Source of the DNA: Escherichia phage vB_EcoM-pEK20
Sequence record: MZ868638.1
Strand: one strand, 5' to 3'
DNA: 64,000 bases
Below the pieces are notes generated by a model. It searched no databases. It was not told the origin of the DNA and worked only from the letters and a program-made list of their open reading frames with translations. Of this stretch, positions 2,491-62,626 are shown piece after piece (the first letter of the stretch is position 1; every line of letters begins with the position of its first letter). A program made the position numbers and the translations under genes.

Positions 2491-3084
2491 ATGAACACAC
2501 TGAAGAAACTTGTTGAATTCATCCGCACTAAACTGGGTACTGCTATGGCTAAAAATCTGACTGTCGAAGAACAGTATAACGCAGCTGCAGATAAGTTGAT
2601 TACCCAAATCAAAGAACTAAAAACGGCTTCTGTTAAATCTATTAATGAAGAAAAACGTATTCGCGAACTTGTTATTGAAAAGAATAAGCAAGCCGCTTCT
2701 AAGGAACGTGAAATTCGTAAGCTCCTGGCTGAAGGACAAGATGTTACCATGCATGCTAAGCTTGGTCTTCTGTATCGTCGAACTGCCGAACAACTTAATA
2801 CAAAAGCTGACGGGTATGCCGCTATGCGAATTGAAATTGCTCGTAAGGTTGTTGAACTTGACGATGCTCGTCAGAATCTGGCAATCAAACTCGAATACAT
2901 TCGTGAAACTCGAGCAGCTAATGCCCTTGGTATCTCTACGGCTGATGATGTAATTGAAATCGCTGCACTGACTAAGGTTGATATCGAAGACACTCTGACT
3001 CGTGTTGAAACGTTCAATGGTACTCCAGCTGGTGTCGAAACCACTTCTGCTGATGTACAAGAATATATTAACTCTTTGAAATAA
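2491..3084 (+). CDS. hypothetical protein (likely coiled-coil)
   Basis: ATG at M6 of listed TTG-start ORF; heptad-like charged sequence. Confidence 0.5.
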
Positions 3085-3092
3085 AATAATAC

Positions 3093-3114
3093 GGAGGACT
3101 CCGGTCCTCCTTTT
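3093..3114 (+). terminator. rho-independent terminator
   Basis: stem ggaggac 3093-3099 / gtcctcc 3104-3110, loop tccg, then tttt. Confidence 0.7.
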
Positions 3115-3133
3115 GGATAATAAAGGAGTTAAC

Positions 3134-3730
3134 ATGCGAAACCAAAATAATGATATTGACTCAATGTTCGAAGAGTTCCGAGATAAGGTAAATCCACCTA
3201 CGTCTTTAGTTGATTCATTACGATATGTTGCAACTGGACGTAAATGGTACTGGTCGTCTTCTTATGAGACAACTGAATATGCAAATAACCGAAAATCTTT
3301 ATTAGCCCCAGGTATTATGATTCATGATATCGGAGCTATTGCTAAACTAGTTGCAGACCATGATATTAGATTCACTGATTTCGTTGCTCCTACGTGGTCT
3401 GTTTGTTGTTTAAACACTGAATGGGACTATATCAGTGAACGTTCAGATGATTACATAGGCTTTAGAGACAAGCTTTTAAGGTCTAACATGTTTTATATTG
3501 ATACAGAAGTTCTGGTCAATAATAAAAAATACTACTTCACTTTAATCGTCGATTCTGAAACTATGTATGAAGGCAAGCCTTTGCTTAAAAGAGTTGATGC
3601 TTTAAGTGCTATTGATGCGCTTTATGAAACCATGGTTGTTAGTCCTAATTTCACTAACAATTTAATCCTTGAGCAATTTATTATGGAATGTAGAGAATAT
3701 GTCAAAGCCAACCCTATACATGCCAAGTAA
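3134..3730 (+). CDS. hypothetical protein
   Basis: ATG with SD aaagga; C-terminus carries EQFIMECR junction motif. Confidence 0.5.
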   Translation: MRNQNNDIDSMFEEFRDKVNPPTSLVDSLRYVATGRKWYWSSSYETTEYANNRKSLLAPGIMIHDIGAIAKLVADHDIRFTDFVAPTWSVCCLNTEWDYISERSDDYIGFRDKLLRSNMFYIDTEVLVNNKKYYFTLIVDSETMYEGKPLLKRVDALSAIDALYETMVVSPNFTNNLILEQFIMECREYVKANPIHAK

Positions 3731-4094
3731 GCCCTGGGCGTATGAATACAAGCGTAAATTAATCCCAAATGAAGTACTATTTGGCCCTATTTTAGCTTTA
3801 GCGTTTTTAATCTTTATGTTTATAGGAGCTGTTTTAGATTCCAATAAAGTTATATCGTCTGATGCAGCGTTTTCATTAATGTTCGTCGCACCACTTATTG
3901 TACCGTTTTTATTAATGCCTATTAATTGGGCAGGATATTGGCACCAAGGCCGTCATCACAGAGCCCGATTAAGAGAATGGAAAGTTCAGTGCGCAAAAGC
4001 CCAAGCTCAGTATGATGAAGCTGTTAAAAAGTATGAATATGAAGAAGCTATGGAATTCGTTAAGGAAATAAGATGCAAAAACCTCAACTCTTAA
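3699..4094 (+). CDS. small membrane protein (2 predicted TM segments)
   Basis: first in-frame ATG of listed TTG ORF; hydrophobic segments; C-terminal EFVKEIRC motif; start uncertain (3720 also possible). Confidence 0.4.
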   Translation: MSKPTLYMPSKPWAYEYKRKLIPNEVLFGPILALAFLIFMFIGAVLDSNKVISSDAAFSLMFVAPLIVPFLLMPINWAGYWHQGRHHRARLREWKVQCAKAQAQYDEAVKKYEYEEAMEFVKEIRCKNLNS

Positions 4095-4315
4095 CCGTAT
4101 GGCCTTCTCTTGGTGAGAACGTTCTAATTTTTATTATGAGTATTGGCATGGGATTTGCCTTTGGATTAGTTGGATTTCTTATTGACGGCGTTGTGTTAGG
4201 ATTTATAGGGAACACTGTTGGATTCACAGACCAATGGCAGGACTTACGGTATACACAAGCCTTTGCATCCATCGCATCATTTTGTACTGTAGTCTATTTT
4301 TACTACGATTTATAA
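4073..4315 (+). CDS. small membrane protein
   Basis: ATG ORF, strongly hydrophobic 80 aa. Confidence 0.45.
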   Translation: MQKPQLLTVWPSLGENVLIFIMSIGMGFAFGLVGFLIDGVVLGFIGNTVGFTDQWQDLRYTQAFASIASFCTVVYFYYDL

Positions 4316-4426
4316 ACCATAACAAGAAAAATAAAAAGGTTTACGCTTCTCAAATGATTAGTTATAATGAACTCCTAGCTAGACGTGAAAATGAAACAAT
4401 CGAAAACTTTATTAAGGAATGTAGAA

Positions 4427-4732
4427 ATGAGTAAGATTATTGAAATTAAAGTACCAGAGTTTAATGATGCCAAATCCGCTTCAGATGCAATTTATAAACT
4501 TCTGAATCAAGCTGAACGTATCGAAGAAGAAGCAACAAAGATCGCAGACCAATATGCCGTATCATTTTCTGTAGGTGATTATGGTAGTGGTCGTACTTAT
4601 TATCCTAAGGGTGAAATCGTATCCCAGTGGATGAAAGATGAAATTGAAAATAATGGTGGCGATGTTAAGCGTGAAGGTAATGGTTACATTATTACTGAAG
4701 GTGCTTGGGTTTCGTCTTCTGCGTTGTGCTAA
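4427..4732 (+). CDS. small protein, paralog family with C-terminal GxW[VI]SSSxxC (copy 1)
   Basis: ATG at M15 of listed GTG ORF; C-terminus GAWVSSSALC. Confidence 0.5.
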   Translation: MSKIIEIKVPEFNDAKSASDAIYKLLNQAERIEEEATKIADQYAVSFSVGDYGSGRTYYPKGEIVSQWMKDEIENNGGDVKREGNGYIITEGAWVSSSALC

Positions 4733-4741
4733 GGAATCATT

Positions 4742-5014
4742 ATGTCTAAAGAACAAACCGAACTGGCTGAAGCCGTAGCAAAAATCTATGCAGCTATTGA
4801 GGCTGCCAAAGAAATTGCTGATAAACAAAACACAACATTCGACTTGTATCCAGCTTATGGTATGGGTGGAACCTATCATTCACCGGGACAACTTAAAGCC
4901 GATCTTGAACGTTGTACAAAAAACGGCTATGCTGAATGGGCTGACGTTTACCAATACGACTACAATCTGAGCCTCGAAACTGGTGGTTGGATTGCGTCTT
5001 CTCACACTTGCTAA
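4742..5014 (+). CDS. small protein, paralog family (copy 2)
   Basis: ATG ORF; C-terminus GGWIASSHTC. Confidence 0.5.
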   Translation: MSKEQTELAEAVAKIYAAIEAAKEIADKQNTTFDLYPAYGMGGTYHSPGQLKADLERCTKNGYAEWADVYQYDYNLSLETGGWIASSHTC

Positions 5015-5023
5015 GGAAATCAT

Positions 5024-5221
5024 ATGTCTCGTGAATTAGATTGTGCTGTACGTACGGCAGTAGCTGCCCTAGAAAACCTGTTCCAAATTGCAACAGAAGA
5101 ACGCGAAGAAGTTACATTATGGATTGAAGATAACGCAGGTCTGAATCTCCAGAATGCAATCTCGGTATCAAATAATAGTATTACTGTTCAAGGCTGGGTA
5201 TCATCTAGTTATTCTTGCTAA
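5024..5221 (+). CDS. small protein, paralog family (copy 3)
   Basis: ATG ORF; C-terminus QGWVSSSYSC. Confidence 0.5.
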   Translation: MSRELDCAVRTAVAALENLFQIATEEREEVTLWIEDNAGLNLQNAISVSNNSITVQGWVSSSYSC

Positions 5222-5225
5222 AACA

Positions 5226-5255
5226 GTTTACAACAAGATAGGGCTATGTTATAGT
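5226..5255 (+). promoter_or_regulatory. early promoter in stem-loop
   Basis: -35 gtttac 5226-5231, -10 tatagt 5250-5255; inverted repeat gatagg 5237-5242 / cctatc 5259-5264. Confidence 0.6.
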
Positions 5256-5283
5256 AGTCCTATCAAATTAAACGGAGACCACA

Positions 5284-5523
5284 ATGATTTATTACGAAAG
5301 TGTTGGAACCAAAGTGGTTGGTAAAACCATTACTCGTGAAAAGTTTGCAAAGATATTCGATATGCGTTATAAAAAATCTGAACACAAAGGCATCCGATTC
5401 GAAGATGCACACTGTACAATTTGCCCTTATAATGAAGACATAAATGGTACAATCGTTCCATTAGTAGAGGCTTCACACGATGACCTCTGGGATGAATATA
5501 ATATCGCATGTCGTGAAATTTAA
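5284..5523 (+). CDS. hypothetical protein
   Basis: ATG ORF with SD ggagacc upstream. Confidence 0.45.
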   Translation: MIYYESVGTKVVGKTITREKFAKIFDMRYKKSEHKGIRFEDAHCTICPYNEDINGTIVPLVEASHDDLWDEYNIACREI

Positions 5524-5547
5524 GTTAATTAATCCGAGGAAAATATT

Positions 5548-6504
5548 ATGATGTTAGTTATTGGTTCTCGTGCACTTCACTATCATGGTCTTATTGATTC
5601 TAGCGCTATCAAAAATAGCGATTGGGACTTTATTGCGGACCAAGGTTCTTGGAATGCATTCAAAAATCAAATGATGGGTGTATATGTTCACCAAGACAAC
5701 CCTGATGTCCAAGTTTTCAAATGCTTCCATAATGGACGCGAAACTCATTTTGAAGCATATATTGTTCCGGCAATCACTAATGTTCGTGAACTAGTCGGTG
5801 AACTCACTCCTGAAGATTTCACGTCTTCTTATGACCTTTTAAAATACGCCAAGAAAAATTTGACTAAAGATCGTTTGACCGGGTTTTACTGGGCAACTCC
5901 TGAGATATGTCTTGCAATTAAAATGTCTCATCGTTTCAAGAAAAATAATCCATTCTTTTTAAAGACTATGAACCATATTCAGTATCTTCGTGGTAAAGGT
6001 GTTACACTGAACGATGAACTTACTGAAATTATGCTGAAACGCCAGAAAGAAACTTTGAACTATGCTCACCCAGTTCTTGACACTTCTAAAAGTGCGTTCT
6101 TTAAAGATGACATCTATACATATGACCATGATACTATTCACGAAGCCATTGCACTAACAGACCGTCCGGCTTATACGTTTTACATGAAAGACGGTTCTGA
6201 AGTCATGACCTCACGCGAGAAGTTCGAATCGTTACCAGAAATGGTCAAATTGGCCGGCGTATATGAAGAATCATGTGTACTAGCGTTAGAACGTTCTCAG
6301 ATTCCTAATAACTTTGAAATTAACCCTGAAGCCAGTTTCATGATGGCATTAGAAAAAGTCTGCACAAGCATCACCTCCGGTTGGTTCCGTGAGTATGCCT
6401 GGGAGAACTATGGCAAAGTAGTAAGTATGTATCAAAGCTTAGGACACGACGATTACGTCAAGCGTTTCAAACAAAATTTTCATATGGTAAAACCTTTCAA
6501 ATAA
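5548..6504 (+). CDS. hypothetical protein (possible minimal nucleotidyltransferase fold, weak)
   Basis: 318-aa ORF, SD gagga; N-terminal IGSRALHY...DWD loosely resembles GS...DxD motif. Confidence 0.5.
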   Translation: MMLVIGSRALHYHGLIDSSAIKNSDWDFIADQGSWNAFKNQMMGVYVHQDNPDVQVFKCFHNGRETHFEAYIVPAITNVRELVGELTPEDFTSSYDLLKYAKKNLTKDRLTGFYWATPEICLAIKMSHRFKKNNPFFLKTMNHIQYLRGKGVTLNDELTEIMLKRQKETLNYAHPVLDTSKSAFFKDDIYTYDHDTIHEAIALTDRPAYTFYMKDGSEVMTSREKFESLPEMVKLAGVYEESCVLALERSQIPNNFEINPEASFMMALEKVCTSITSGWFREYAWENYGKVVSMYQSLGHDDYVKRFKQNFHMVKPFK

Positions 6505-6516
6505 CTTCACAAAACT

Positions 6517-6546
6517 GTTTACAACAAGATAGGACTATGTTATAGT
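6517..6546 (+). promoter_or_regulatory. early promoter in stem-loop
   Basis: -35 gtttac 6517-6522, -10 tatagt 6541-6546; inverted repeat ataggact/agtcctat. Confidence 0.6.
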
Positions 6547-6574
6547 AGTCCTATTAAAACATGAGGAGAATATT

Positions 6575-6880
6575 ATGAAATTAGGCGAAACCAACCGAAT
6601 TGGTCTTTTAACAATATTTGCATCACCTTTTTACGCAGCTCTTTCTGTTGCAGTATTACAAAAGGCTTACGATATGGATGGTGTTCCTGGTTGTATATTC
6701 TTATCACCATTTTTATTATTCGTCGGGGCTTTGTTATTATATGCCACGACTAGTTTTGACCATAATGTCTGGGTTAATTATAAATGTAAATTGTCTGAAG
6801 AAGAACACGCAGAAGCTCGTAAAAAAGCTATTGAATCTACCAATCTAGAAAATTTCATTAAAGAATGTCGAGGAAAATAA
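6575..6880 (+). CDS. small membrane protein with C-terminal ENFIKECR motif
   Basis: ATG ORF, SD gaggag; two hydrophobic segments. Confidence 0.5.
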   Translation: MKLGETNRIGLLTIFASPFYAALSVAVLQKAYDMDGVPGCIFLSPFLLFVGALLLYATTSFDHNVWVNYKCKLSEEEHAEARKKAIESTNLENFIKECRGK

Positions 6881-6881
6881 T

Positions 6882-7568
6882 ATGAATAGTTCTAAAGTGT
6901 TTAATAGTCAAGCTCGTGCAGTAGGTGGTTTCGCTGGCCGTATCAGTAATGATAAAATTAAAAATGAGCCTATGTTCTTCAACTGCGACCTGAAGTTTGC
7001 TTTTGATAATGGCGGTCCTATCACTCGTTCTTTCATCATGAATCTGCCTGATGACTGGAACACTAATGAAGTAGTATTCGATTCACGTGTTCATATGCTT
7101 ATGCCTGGTTGGTACCCTGCTATTCCTGGATATCACCATGACGATGTTCCTCGCCCTGATATTCCAGTCGGCCAACACTTTATTACTGCAGGACAACCTG
7201 ACTATGATAACCCTCGTTACCATTCTGAACATATTCTTGGTCTTGTTAACGCTGACGTGTGTCCTACTCATTTTGCAACAGGAACTGCAGAGTTCAGTCA
7301 GATTCCTGATGGCGAACTTATCTATCGCCAGTGGCACAAAGAAGTCCTCGAAAAAATTGAAAAAGGTGAACTAGAGAAATGGGAAGCTCCGGACCGTACT
7401 CTTCTTCAGTTTGATTGGCAAACATGGCACACTGGTTCTCGTGCAATTAGTAATGGATGGCGTTGGTTCGGACGTGTATCTCGTAATACAGACCGAGTTA
7501 AAAAGATTACCAATGAAATTCGTGTCAACGCTCAAGTTTATCTAGAATTCCCTATGGAAGGCTGGTAA
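6882..7568 (+). CDS. hypothetical protein
   Basis: 228-aa ATG ORF, start 1 nt after upstream stop. Confidence 0.5.
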   Translation: MNSSKVFNSQARAVGGFAGRISNDKIKNEPMFFNCDLKFAFDNGGPITRSFIMNLPDDWNTNEVVFDSRVHMLMPGWYPAIPGYHHDDVPRPDIPVGQHFITAGQPDYDNPRYHSEHILGLVNADVCPTHFATGTAEFSQIPDGELIYRQWHKEVLEKIEKGELEKWEAPDRTLLQFDWQTWHTGSRAISNGWRWFGRVSRNTDRVKKITNEIRVNAQVYLEFPMEGW

Positions 7569-8059
7569 TGATTAACAAAACATATTGGTCTAATATTGAC
7601 GACGGCAATGAAGGTATTTCGTACTATTCGGTGGATTGGACAGGATGTCCATCCTACTTAGTGAAACATATTTGCCAAGAATTTAAAATCGACCAGCCAG
7701 CAGGTATTATTGTGAACAGATACATTAACGGATATCAACCTATCGATGAAGTAATACGAACAACTCAAGCTGATCTTGAAAAGTTTTTCAATAAGTGCCA
7801 ATGGATAACAGGATGGATTATATTTGTACCGTCGGTATGGTTTTTTAGTACTAAAGTAAGTGCCTTTGCCATACCAGATATTATCGCTATCTTATTAGCA
7901 TCTACTATCGTAAGTATTATTGGTGGTATTATTGGTGGAGGTACTATAGGCATCATTATTAATCTTGTTAAAAGTAGTTTACAGGAACGTAAAGACAAGA
8001 TAAAGGCCAAGAATAATGAAGTTGAACGTTTTATTACCGAATGCAGGAATTTGAGATGA
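7568..8059 (+). CDS. membrane protein with C-terminal ERFITECR motif
   Basis: ATG overlapping upstream stop (taATGa); Gly/Ile-rich TM segment. Confidence 0.5.
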   Translation: MINKTYWSNIDDGNEGISYYSVDWTGCPSYLVKHICQEFKIDQPAGIIVNRYINGYQPIDEVIRTTQADLEKFFNKCQWITGWIIFVPSVWFFSTKVSAFAIPDIIAILLASTIVSIIGGIIGGGTIGIIINLVKSSLQERKDKIKAKNNEVERFITECRNLR

Positions 8060-8292
8060 GTATAGCAATTTACATTAAATCAGAATCATGTGATAGTTAT
8101 CTGTACACATACGATAAAGATGTGTCAGAAGAAAAAATCAAAGACGATCTTAATATGGACCTTGATTTGTTCAGTCCTATTGCAGATTACAAACTTGCGG
8201 TCTCTAATAGTGAAAGTCCATCTAAAGAAACGCGCATTGAAGAATTTATGTCCGAATTAATGGCCAAATCATGGGACCGAGATGATGAGTAA
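8056..8292 (+). CDS. hypothetical small acidic protein
   Basis: ATG at M6 of listed ORF, agga 9 nt upstream. Confidence 0.4.
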   Translation: MSIAIYIKSESCDSYLYTYDKDVSEEKIKDDLNMDLDLFSPIADYKLAVSNSESPSKETRIEEFMSELMAKSWDRDDE

Positions 8293-8740
8293 GAAAAATA
8301 AAGTGAAAGAACTATCAGCCGGTATTATTTTCCTTACCGAAAATAAAGAATTATTCATGGGTCGTGTAACTGGTTCTCGTCCTAAAGGTGCATTAGCTCA
8401 TCGGTGGGATATTCCTAAAGGCCGTGTCGAACCTGGCGAATCTCCTATTGAAGCCGCTATTCGTGAATGCGAAGAAGAAACTGGGTTTACACAATATGAT
8501 CCTGCCTTCCTGAAAGACCTAGGTGAACATCATTACTCAGACAATAAGAATATTCATCTGTTCCTATATACCATCCCTGTAGAGCACGAGCAATTCAGAA
8601 ACAGTGTTTGCAATTCCTATCATACATTCCCAGACGGACGTCAGATTCCTGAATTTGATGCATTCGCTTTAATTAAACCTTCTCAATGGGAATATGTAAT
8701 GGGCAAATCATTATATAAGGTGCTCACTACCCTCCTATAA
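8282..8740 (+). CDS. nudE: Nudix hydrolase (T4 NudE/e.1-like)
   Basis: Nudix box GRVEPGESPIEAAIRECEEETG; position immediately upstream of lysozyme as in T4. Confidence 0.75.
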   Translation: MMSKKNKVKELSAGIIFLTENKELFMGRVTGSRPKGALAHRWDIPKGRVEPGESPIEAAIRECEEETGFTQYDPAFLKDLGEHHYSDNKNIHLFLYTIPVEHEQFRNSVCNSYHTFPDGRQIPEFDAFALIKPSQWEYVMGKSLYKVLTTLL

Positions 8741-8774
8741 GTAATAAATACCTCCTATAAACGTGGGAGGTATT

Positions 8775-9263
8775 ATGAATATATTTGAAATGCTTCGTAA
8801 TGACGAAGGTCTTAGACTGACTTTATACAAAGACACTGAAGGCTTTTGGACGATTGGCATAGGCCATTTAGTAACAAAGAACCCGTCTTTAGCCGTAGCT
8901 AAAGCTGAACTTGACAGAATGATCGGACGTAAATGCAACGGTACAATTACCCTTGATGAGGCTGAAAAGTTATTTAATGAAGACGTTGATAAAGCTGTTC
9001 GCGGAATCTTGGGTAATGCTAAACTTAAACCGGTATATGATTCTTTAGATGCAGTTCGTCGATGTGCATTGGTCAATATGGTCTTCCAAATGGGTGTAGC
9101 AGGCGTCGCTGGTTTTACTAATTCTCTTCGTATGCTTCAACAGAAACGTTGGGACGAAGCGGCAGTAAATCTAGCCCAATCTAAATGGTATCGTCAGACA
9201 CCTAATCGCGCGAAACGCGTAATCTCAACATTTAAAACAGGAACTTGGAAAGCGTATATATGA
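8775..9263 (+). CDS. e: endolysin, T4 lysozyme
   Basis: MNIFEMLR...GHLLTK...[27 protein letters not shown] closely matches T4 gpe; SD gggagg. Confidence 0.95.
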
Positions 9264-9572: not shown

Positions 9573-9599
9573 ACATTCATCAACTACTTGGAGGAAATT

Positions 9600-10013
9600 A
9601 TGACTCGTATCAATTTAACACTTGTTTCTGAACTGGCCGACCAACATCTTATGGCTGAGTATCGTGAATTACCACGCGTATTTGGTGCAGTCCGTAAACA
9701 TGTTCAAAACGGTAAACGTGTAAAGGATTTTAAAATCTCTCCAACATTTATCTTAGGCACAGGTCACGTAACATTCTTTTACGACAAACTCGAATTTTTA
9801 CGTTTACGCCAAATCGAGCTAATCGCTGAATGCTTGAAACGTGGTTTCAAAATCAAGGACACGACTGTCCAGGATATTTCCGACATCCCTGCCGAATTTC
9901 GTAATAATTATGTCCCGTCCGAAGCGTCCATTGCGATAAGTCAAGCACGCTTAGATGAAAAAATTGCTCAACGTCCGACTTGGTACAAATACTATGGTAA
10001 ATCAATTTACTAA
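9600..10013 (+). CDS. denV: endonuclease V, pyrimidine-dimer DNA glycosylase
   Basis: [28 protein letters not shown]... matches T4 DenV. Confidence 0.95.
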
Positions 10014-10019
10014 GGAAAA

Positions 10020-10136
10020 ATGAAAATGTATCAAGAATTTATCATTGAAGCAGAGGCCAAAGGTCCTAAAGTAGATGTTGACGATATTGGATATGATTTT
10101 AACAACTTCGGAATTATTTCTGGCGGTAAAGCTTAA
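10020..10136 (+). CDS. mini internal-protein-like ORF (38 aa) with capsid-targeting leader MKMYQEFIIE
   Basis: SD aagga then ATG 10020; not in ORF track because <60 aa. Confidence 0.35.
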   Translation: MKMYQEFIIEAEAKGPKVDVDDIGYDFNNFGIISGGKA

Positions 10137-10874: not shown

Positions 10875-10900
10875 TATTCATAATTACTTGGATGGGTAAA

Positions 10901-10999
10901 ATGACTTATATTAATTTGACTTTAGTATCTAAATTTGCTGATCAACATTTAATCGCCGAATACTGTGAATTGCCACGTGTTTTTTGGTATAATTCGTAA
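10901..10999 (+). pseudogene. denV 5' fragment (frameshifted, truncated second copy)
   Basis: [28 protein letters not shown] then stop; deleting one T restores GIIRKHV matching DenV GAVRKHV. Confidence 0.6.
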
Positions 11000-62044: not shown

Positions 62045-62626
62045 ATGACATGTCAATCTGAACTTCAAGAACGCGAATACCTAACAAATCTGATTGATAG
62101 CAAATTCACCCGCCAAGAACAAAACATTCTCTGGGCCTGCACCGATTCTAAGGAAGACCCGGATTTCCACTATGAATTAGACCATCTTGTTCGTAAGCAT
62201 ATGACTTCTACAGTGCCAGTAGAACTCTACCGTGGTGTAACTCCAGAAGAAGTAGAACGTCTTTCCCTTCTTTCTGTGGGATGCCATTGGTCTCCTGGAC
62301 GAGTAACATCGTTCACAACTGATTTCAGTACAGCTCGTCAATTCTCCGGGAGATGGGAATATCAGACGTACACTATTCTTAGTCTCAGGAATGCTCCATT
62401 CATTTTTGATTACTACCAAAACATGGTTAACATTGTACTTGCCGGAAAGAACCCTAAGCATGTTATGGAAGAAACGCGTGTTGACGTCCTAGATATGATT
62501 GAATCTGAACAAGAATACATGGTCTCAGGTATCTCTAGATTTGAGATTGTGGAAATTGAAGAGTTAGAGTATGACCCTTTGTCTCGAGTATACAAAATCA
62601 TTCACTTAAAGATGTTGAATTTTTAG
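62045..62626 (+). CDS. ADP-ribosyltransferase, ModA/ModB-like
   Basis: R-S-E ART motifs: YRG, SFTTDF, EQEYMVSG; paralog of next gene; position downstream of soc as for T4 modA/modB. Confidence 0.55.
   Translation: MTCQSELQEREYLTNLIDSKFTRQEQNILWACTDSKEDPDFHYELDHLVRKHMTSTVPVELYRGVTPEEVERLSLLSVGCHWSPGRVTSFTTDFSTARQFSGRWEYQTYTILSLRNAPFIFDYYQNMVNIVLAGKNPKHVMEETRVDVLDMIESEQEYMVSGISRFEIVEIEELEYDPLSRVYKIIHLKMLNF

Follow-up and report, generated by a model that had tools for sequence, protein, structure and literature searches.

Five genes between positions 3,134 and 8,059 of a 64,000-nt stretch of DNA (the window) from Escherichia phage vB_EcoM-pEK20 (accession MZ868638.1) carry the same short peptide, F-[IV]-x-E-[C/I]-R, close to their C-terminus, encoded where each of them meets the next gene. 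The carriers, here called genes A to E (Table 1), include homologues of the phage T4 genes e.5, e.4, e.3 and e.2. To judge from its codons, the motif is selected as a peptide, and it probably acts as a cytoplasmic amphipathic helix for interaction or assembly that is shared by the proteins of the e.2-e.5 cluster. The source phage is a Mosigvirus (RB69-like): positions 3000-9000 of the window shared 96% identity with genomes of this genus, to which RB69/JS09-type T4-like phages such as 308Ecol101PP, mogra and Shf125875 belong.

An initial annotation of the window had described a recurrent cassette of near-identical DNA at five gene ends. All five copies were found on the + strand, each in the frame of a real gene, and all end at or near the next start codon (motif-to-ATG distance -1 to +10 nt). 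The pattern F[IV]xE[CI]R occurred 7 times in the six frames of the window as against a mean of 0.18 (maximum 2) in 200 shuffled sequences; the two extra matches, at 62176 and 56960, were on the - strand outside genes. The likeness is one of peptides, and the description as near-identical DNA was overstated, since the copies agree at 10-20 of 24 nt and the longest common exact word is 6-10 nt. The second copy had been read as EFVKEIRC, but in the correct alignment it is F-V-K-E-I-R with the cysteine displaced. The remark that the carriers are mostly small membrane proteins was borne out, hydrophobic segments being present in four of the five and absent from the first (198 aa).

Selection on the peptide and selection on the DNA were compared in 60 distinct DNA instances from 20 protein clusters. 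At the arginine position all six codons were in use (AGA, AGG, CGT, CGC, CGA and CGG). Cysteine was encoded by TGT (29 instances) or TGC (22), phenylalanine by TTT or TTC, with tryptophan (TGG) as the sole replacement, and the Ile/Val position by ATT, ATC, ATA, GTT, GTC or GTG. The information content showed a clear three-base periodicity, with 0.59-0.85 bit at third positions versus 1.0-2.0 at the first two. The peptide ENFIKECR is identical in genes C and D, but 4 of its 8 codons show synonymous differences between them. The e.5 family gave a measure of how deep the conservation reaches. An alignment of 14 members of its superfamily (11-48% identity, including proteins of Aeromonas phages) contained only four invariant columns, M1, N94, F182 and C186. 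An exhaustive profile search of 1.84 billion protein representatives found the e.5 family in no more than 10 representatives, each of them phage-like, and those remote homologues whose sequence was read keep F-[IV]-x-x-C-R, the exception being an Aeromonas-phage member with isoleucine for arginine. Because third positions are free, six arginine codons are used and F and C are invariant even in the divergent e.5 superfamily, the pattern is that of purifying selection on the peptide and not on the DNA.

The wider consensus can be written phi-[E/D/N]-x-[F/W]-[I/V]-x-x-C-[R/K], followed by 1-15 mostly basic residues; in the e.4 lineage I, V, M or S takes the place of the cysteine. Motif positions -3, 0, +1 and +4 fall on one helical face. 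Concerted evolution of the tails by recent gene conversion was considered and not supported: synonymous differences are saturated and the tails track orthology.

All five junctions of the window are of the coupling type, the two genes overlapping by up to 32 nt or being separated by at most 1 nt, with the SD (Shine-Dalgarno) sequence inside the upstream open reading frame (ORF). In this they are like ordinary coupled junctions (ATGA, with the SD in the upstream coding sequence), stop and start overlapping or lying 1 nt apart in 5 of 5 cases. They differ from them in that ordinary junctions have no conserved upstream peptide and the motif is absent from other T4 junctions. Across the relatives, the distance from the arginine codon to the next ATG was -1 to +22 nt in all true instances, and it stayed in this range although the carrier reading frame may run on past the motif (by 9-15 codons in e.5, 4-6 in e.4 and 4 in some e.2 genes). 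With the next ATG no more than 3 nt away, codons +2 and +3 of the motif constitute the downstream SD (AAG GAA, GAG GAA, AAA GGA, AAG GAG or ATG GAG); where it is 7-10 nt away, the arginine codon provides it (AGG A, AGA GG or CGA GGA). The same codons thus serve as peptide motif and as downstream SD, a clear case of dual coding. In these terms the K-E of the consensus given in the initial annotation (E-x-F-I-K-E-C-R) is partly an SD in the guise of codons, while F, I, C and R are constraints of the peptide.

It might be thought that the nucleotides themselves are selected, for coupling or regulation of the downstream gene, as an S1/SD enhancer, a RegA operator or a RegB site. The constant proximity of the next ATG, even where the carrier runs on for 4-15 codons, would agree with this. 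So would the resemblance of UUUAUU followed by AAGGA to an AU-rich enhancer plus SD, and the fact that K-E, E-E or K-G codons give the SD in the instances with the ATG at most 2 nt downstream (33/60). The freedom of synonymous sites, arginine with its six codons among them, speaks against it, as does the replacement of phenylalanine by tryptophan only and never by a residue with other U-rich codons. Moreover, conservation of the motif is just as strong in e.5 of Dhakavirus and Gaprivervirus, in which the next ATG follows only after 22 nt and has its SD at another place, and other T4 gene junctions do without the motif. RNA folding at the five junctions revealed no significant structure (z-scores 0.70, 0.16, 1.86, -0.05 and -1.10) and an Rfam scan found no family there, so a structured RNA element was discarded. 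A RegB target, which the initial annotation had named as something to check at these sites, was likewise ruled out, GGAG occurring in none of the five window junctions, and the free synonymous variation argues against a conserved RegA operator. We regard a junction element selected at the RNA or DNA level as improbable. Of the translational coupling suggested at the outset, the coupling-type junctions and the SD in the K-E part remain; it does not account for F, I, C and R, which are kept as amino acids.

The distribution of the motif was examined with a profile hidden Markov model (HMM) of 16 columns. It was made from 17 instances of the motif, and all stop-to-stop segments of the six frames were searched with it. 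As the model was built from sequences that it recovers, its seeds match by construction and only the absence of other matches, in about 170 kb, is informative. In the T4 genome and the window together, scores of 16.8-22.7 bits were reached only by T4 e.5, e.4 and e.3, the tail downstream of T4 e.2 and the five window copies, with 11.1 bits as the next best score. The complete Mosigvirus genome OZ035759 contained exactly five matches, all at 57.5-62.5 kb, the next scoring 9.7 bits. A simple search for [FW][IV]xxC[RK] within the last 22 residues gave 3 of 285 ORFs in T4 and 4 of 274 in Mosigvirus, all within the cluster. A genome-wide junction signal is ruled out by these whole-genome scans, which place the motif in the e-gene cluster only: it characterises this single cluster and does not mark junctions in general. 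Among 80 related loci centred on a 228-aa anchor gene, all enterobacterial T4-like genomes with an intact cluster had 4-6 motif genes each and two loci partly lacking the cluster had 2; within 10 kb of the anchor gene, no motif cluster was found in the more distant environmental relatives of this sample.

Looser tails of a similar kind occur nearby. The e.6 homologue (3061-3084 in the window) ends QEYINSLK and T4 e.8 ends EEYFNNMK, that is aromatic, aliphatic, x, x, aliphatic, Lys, in register with F-I-x-x-C-R. A broad tail pattern, chosen after these two tails had been seen, matched 5 of about 8 T4 e-region genes versus 7 of about 277 elsewhere.

How the carriers came to share a tail depends on what the rest of the proteins have in common. 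The five carriers belong to five PHROGs (2607, 2604, 2330, 9798 and 2203), and BLASTP similarity among them was limited to the last 9-30 residues. Profile comparison with hhalign gave 79-94% probability among the four membrane families with the tail included and at most 3.5% without it; carrier A matched the other carriers in the tail only. Further bodies bear the tail in other genera: one family is soluble and has about 95 aa, and a number of others have two transmembrane (TM) segments. In the Pfam and NCBIfam collections of local libraries the carriers fell into no family, PcfK, MAG0920 and similar matches being below the cut-off, and the GenBank labels 'sulfurtransferase' and 'SdpI/YfhL' (in two records) received no support from these scans. 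The possibility that the N-terminal domain of e.2 is a fused small soluble carrier was also unsupported (hhalign 0.6%).

The most serious competitor of a shared function is plain paralogy. One gene would have been duplicated repeatedly and the tail would simply be its slowest-evolving segment, for instance a helix for its own folding or homo-oligomerisation, with no common partner involved. The constant C-terminal position of the motif and its confinement to one cluster would follow naturally, tandem duplicates are known in relatives (clusters 246-246 and 165-166), the membrane families align over TM segments and tail together at the 79-94% mentioned above, and the tails follow orthology rather than genome, e.2 having FITECR in T4 and Mosigvirus alike. 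On the other hand no pair exceeded 3.5% once the tail was removed, and the soluble carriers (e.5, about 200 aa and alpha/beta, and the 95-aa family) share only the tail with the two-TM proteins; simple paralogy is therefore not enough. The initial annotation had held that a motif found only in homologous proteins at comparable positions would mean simple paralogy. The comparable position and the single cluster were indeed observed, but the bodies, soluble as well as membrane proteins, have no detectable homology when the tail is left out. Plain descent from one gene without a common partner seems to us a minority possibility that nevertheless deserves attention.

We favour, with moderate confidence, a shared helix for interaction or assembly. 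A hydropathy scan combined with the positive-inside rule placed the tails of carriers B to E, which are rich in K and R, after the last TM segment on the cytoplasmic side, A having no TM segment. In an AlphaFold2 model of A the motif was part of the terminal helix H177-192 (mean predicted local distance difference test, pLDDT, 62.5; predicted template modelling score 0.64; a weak model), and in that of E, also weak (pLDDT 50.2), the tail was a helix continuing from TM2; fold searches returned nothing usable. On this basis the tail is predicted to be helical and cytoplasmic and may have a docking function. On the cytoplasmic side of the inner membrane it would join the carriers to a single common partner or to one another, and the soluble e.5 protein, which is always present, would be one candidate for the partner. 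The product of e.6 was rejected as a PspA/IM30-like partner: it has no Pfam or PDB sequence match and hhalign gave 0.5%. With the genes packed end to end, the codons of such a tag would double as the translation-initiation region of the next gene, the SD being supplied by the K-E, E-E or K-G codons (AAGGA, GAGGA, AAAGGA) or, with the ATG 7-10 nt away, by the choice of arginine codon.

The glutamate at position +3 behaves in a coordinated way. It was present in 75-100% of the paralogues in the Mosigvirus, T4 and Dhaka/Gapriver lineages and in 0-20% in four other T4-like lineages. A common state across paralogues is what a shared partner would produce.

Several points weigh against a shared docking helix. 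The coordinated glutamate may reflect as few as one or two evolutionary events, or SD usage. The four membrane families are possibly distant paralogues, part of the sharing then being plain inheritance, and the profile alignment of D with E covers both TM segments and tail. The topology of the tails is a prediction from the hydropathy scan and the positive-inside rule, and the structure models are the weak ones just mentioned. The cysteine can be replaced in the e.4 lineage, and therefore its chemistry is not required.

Genes e.2-e.8 of T4 are among the many T-even early genes that lack an assigned function. If e.5, e.4, e.3, e.2 and their lineage-specific neighbours share a strongly selected peptide, it is probable that they work jointly or have a common target, and a row of ORFans would become a single testable module. 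Individual carriers are already contained in Pfam PF26876 (the e.5 family) and PF26896 (the e.2 family) and in the PHROGs listed above, but these families are separate, have no assigned function and do not record the shared tail. The strings FIKECR, FITECR, FVKECR, FIEECR and FIMECR occurred in no paper of the searchable literature library. The shared tail of the e.2-e.5 cluster is apparently undescribed so far.

Short terminal amphipathic helices with basic residues on the cytoplasmic side, as predicted here, also serve as the membrane-targeting sequences of MinD and FtsA. There is no sequence relationship to these, four of the five carriers are already anchored in the membrane, and a likeness in membrane binding would be by analogy only.

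The junctions of the e-gene cluster may also be places of recombination, as the initial annotation had suggested in calling the element a homology patch for module shuffling. In VR20 and VR25 (loci L007 and L018) e.5 and e.3 are separated by an e.4-like gene, which IME341-type phages (L006 and L015) do not have, and alignment of the two types revealed a clean indel of about 345 nt. Its ends are GAATA(T/C)GCTAAAGGGGTTCAAAATG and GAATTTAT(T/C)AAGGAGGTTCGTAATG, a repeat with 17 of 25 nt identical that consists of the tail codons, the SD and the ATG; genomes without the e.4-like gene hold a hybrid of both. This is direct support for a homology patch, from one event, and documents one gain or loss of a whole gene at a coding junction. 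Other indels of the region end elsewhere: in locus L004 homology with the window starts at 6529, and in locus L005 positions 4090-4338, within gene C, are deleted.

The nearest counterparts among known junction elements are the promoter-early stem-loop (PeSL) cassettes of T4-type phages (Arbiol et al. 2010, PMC2839356; Comeau et al. 2014, PMC4122927). Like PeSLs, the motif is a short recurrent sequence at gene boundaries of hyperplastic T4-like regions, ends in the downstream SD and ATG, and has an indel crossover within it in the one case described. Unlike PeSLs, which are non-coding and combine a sigma-70 early promoter with a stem-loop, all five copies lie inside ORFs, and the motif is conserved as a peptide and limited to one gene cluster. 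No sigma-70-type early promoter (-35 GTTTAC, -10 TATAAT) overlapped the five copies, the sites in the window being at 2421, 4340, 5227 and 6518, and neither folding z-scores nor a scan for terminator-like sites indicated a stem-loop or terminator at any of them.

One could nevertheless imagine that the patch is maintained as a cassette boundary for modular shuffling, a coding analogue of the PeSLs. Both ends of the indel of the e.4-like gene lie inside the repeat, and crossovers at SD/ATG sequences have been documented for PeSLs (PMC2839356). However, copies within a genome share exact words of only 6-10 nt, too short for efficient homologous exchange; there is a single such event, the other indels ending in a PeSL-type promoter/stem-loop (L004, 6529) or inside gene C (L005); and selection for future shuffling would not favour amino acids over nucleotides. 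We consider a patch kept for the sake of recombination very unlikely, and recombination at the patch is regarded as a by-product rather than a selected function: similar tail/SD/ATG patches would occasionally act as crossover points at which whole genes are gained or lost. A tentative extension, which we rate as possible but speculative, combines this with the docking helix. The tail may be a C-terminal address tag recruiting otherwise unrelated early proteins (e.5-type and small soluble ones as well as several two-TM families) to one partner or membrane-associated complex, in the way that internal proteins are recruited by the N-terminal capsid targeting sequence, newly recombined genes acquiring tag and expression signal together. 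If true, the junction would be a cassette boundary that is coding and differs from PeSLs.

Elements of the PeSL type are present elsewhere in the window, at 5222-5270 and 6508-6560. The two are nearly identical, GTTTACAACAAGATAGG(G/A)CTATGTTATAGTAGTCCTAT, and in each a stem-loop is overlapped by an early promoter (-35 TTTACA, 17 nt, TATAGT); the point at which homology with L004 starts (6529) is within the second. In phage 308Ecol101PP an additional 66-aa ORF is inserted just ahead of gene D.

Among shared peptide tags the nearest is the N-terminal capsid targeting sequence of the T4 internal proteins, MKTYQEFIxE, which is cleaved by gp21 after Glu; it too is a short peptide common to otherwise unrelated proteins of the same neighbourhood. 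The two superficially resemble each other in EFIxE. They differ in that the motif is C-terminal and that tag N-terminal, in that the carriers are mostly membrane proteins and in that the glutamate is dispensable in several lineages. A relationship was not supported, the motif HMM giving only 1.4 bits on the N-terminus of an internal protein, and the conserved glutamate of gp21-type sites (L/I-x-E) is not kept in the four lineages where +3 Glu occurs in 0-20% of the paralogues.

Bypassing in T4 gene 60 involves a nascent peptide, and a nascent-peptide signal at termination could be envisaged for the motif, or else a gp21/capsid-targeting-like site cleaved after I-x-E. FIxE would suit the L/I-x-E consensus of gp21 and recalls the EFIxE of the tags at 9260, 10020, 10200 and 10541. 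The distance of the motif from its own stop codon varies from 1 to 15 codons, though, +3 Glu is missing from most paralogues of four lineages, the HMM score on the internal-protein N-terminus is as low as stated, and inner-membrane proteins are unlikely capsid cargo. Neither variant strikes us as credible. Capsid-targeting-like N-termini were seen on five genes of the window (starts 683, 9260, 10020, 10200 and 10541), the gene at 10020-10136 having only 38 codons.

The carriers are part of a region that runs from the tRNA cluster to nudE, e (lysozyme), the genes of internal proteins, denV and regB, with every gene on the + strand. Carriers A, B, C and E match T4 e.5, e.4, e.3 and e.2 over their full length with conserved gene order (phmmer and synteny), and the annotation of RB69 calls protein E e.2.

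Table 1. Carrier genes, motif copies and two of the junctions in the window
Feature	Position	Strand	Description
Gene A	3134..3730	+	198 aa, soluble; homologue of T4 e.5 (phmmer 5e-59)
Gene A motif, FIMECR	3677-3694	+	followed by 11 further codons overlapping gene B; next ATG 3699
Junction 1	3671..3701	+	motif codons, then GAATATG, the start of gene B
Gene B	3699..4094	+	131 aa, 2 TM; homologue of T4 e.4 (phmmer 5e-47)
Gene B motif variant, FVKEIR	4056-4073	+	ATG of gene C (4073) begins within the Arg codon
Gene C	4073..4434	+	homologue of T4 e.3 (phmmer 6e-19); motif FIKECR at 4408-4425; next ATG 4427
Junction 3	4402..4429	+	TTTATTAAGGAATGTAGAAATG; AAGGA (K-E codons) is the SD, 8 nt ahead of the ATG
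Gene D	6575..6880	+	101 aa, 2 TM; seen only in Mosigvirus loci
Gene D motif, FIKECR	6854-6871	+	next ATG 6882; SD GAGGA formed by the Arg codon and following bases
Gene E	7568..8059	+	163 aa: soluble N-terminal part, 2 TM, tail; homologue of T4 e.2 (phmmer 2.5e-7)
Gene E motif, FITECR	8030-8047	+	next ATG 8056 overlaps the stop (ATGA)

The third motif copy had been assigned to a 26-codon relic ORF, which turned out to be the last part of gene C, the e.3 homologue. This gene is intact in phages mogra and 308Ecol101PP and encodes a 119-aa membrane protein ending ENFIKECRK, while in the window a 1-nt deletion in a T-run near 4309 splits it into pieces of 80 aa and 26 codons. A second homopolymer difference from the closest relatives, in the A-run at 4423-4426, turns the ending CRK into CRNE. 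These two single-base length differences, in the T-run (4306-4315) and the A-run, are within 120 nt of each other, and the split of e.3 in the window may be due to faulty sequencing or mark a genuine pseudogene. Towards its 3' end gene C also contains a strong early promoter-like site (A-tract, GTTTAC, 17 nt, TATAAT) at 4340-4368, which precedes motif copy 3 by 34 nt; the deletion in locus L005 ends (4338/4339) directly before this site.

The annotated T4 e.2 (102 aa) corresponds to the first part of a longer gene interrupted by two in-frame stop codons (NC_000866, 67,472-67,960; locus L003, 5473-5961, - strand). Its frame runs on to an end in NLNNFITECRKLK directly before nudE, and the extended frame aligns end to end with the intact e.2 proteins of relatives, which have 163-197 aa.

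Downstream of gene C there are three consecutive small paralogues (4427-4732, 4742-5014 and 5024-5221) that end in G-x-W-[VI]-[SA]-S-S-x-x-C before the stop codon. Their tails are a second conserved C-terminal motif with a terminal cysteine, and related families elsewhere end in SSMSC or PSSC. Finally, a 35-codon ORF at 10892-10999 duplicates the N-terminus of denV (9588-10013) and appears to be a fragmentary second copy of this gene.

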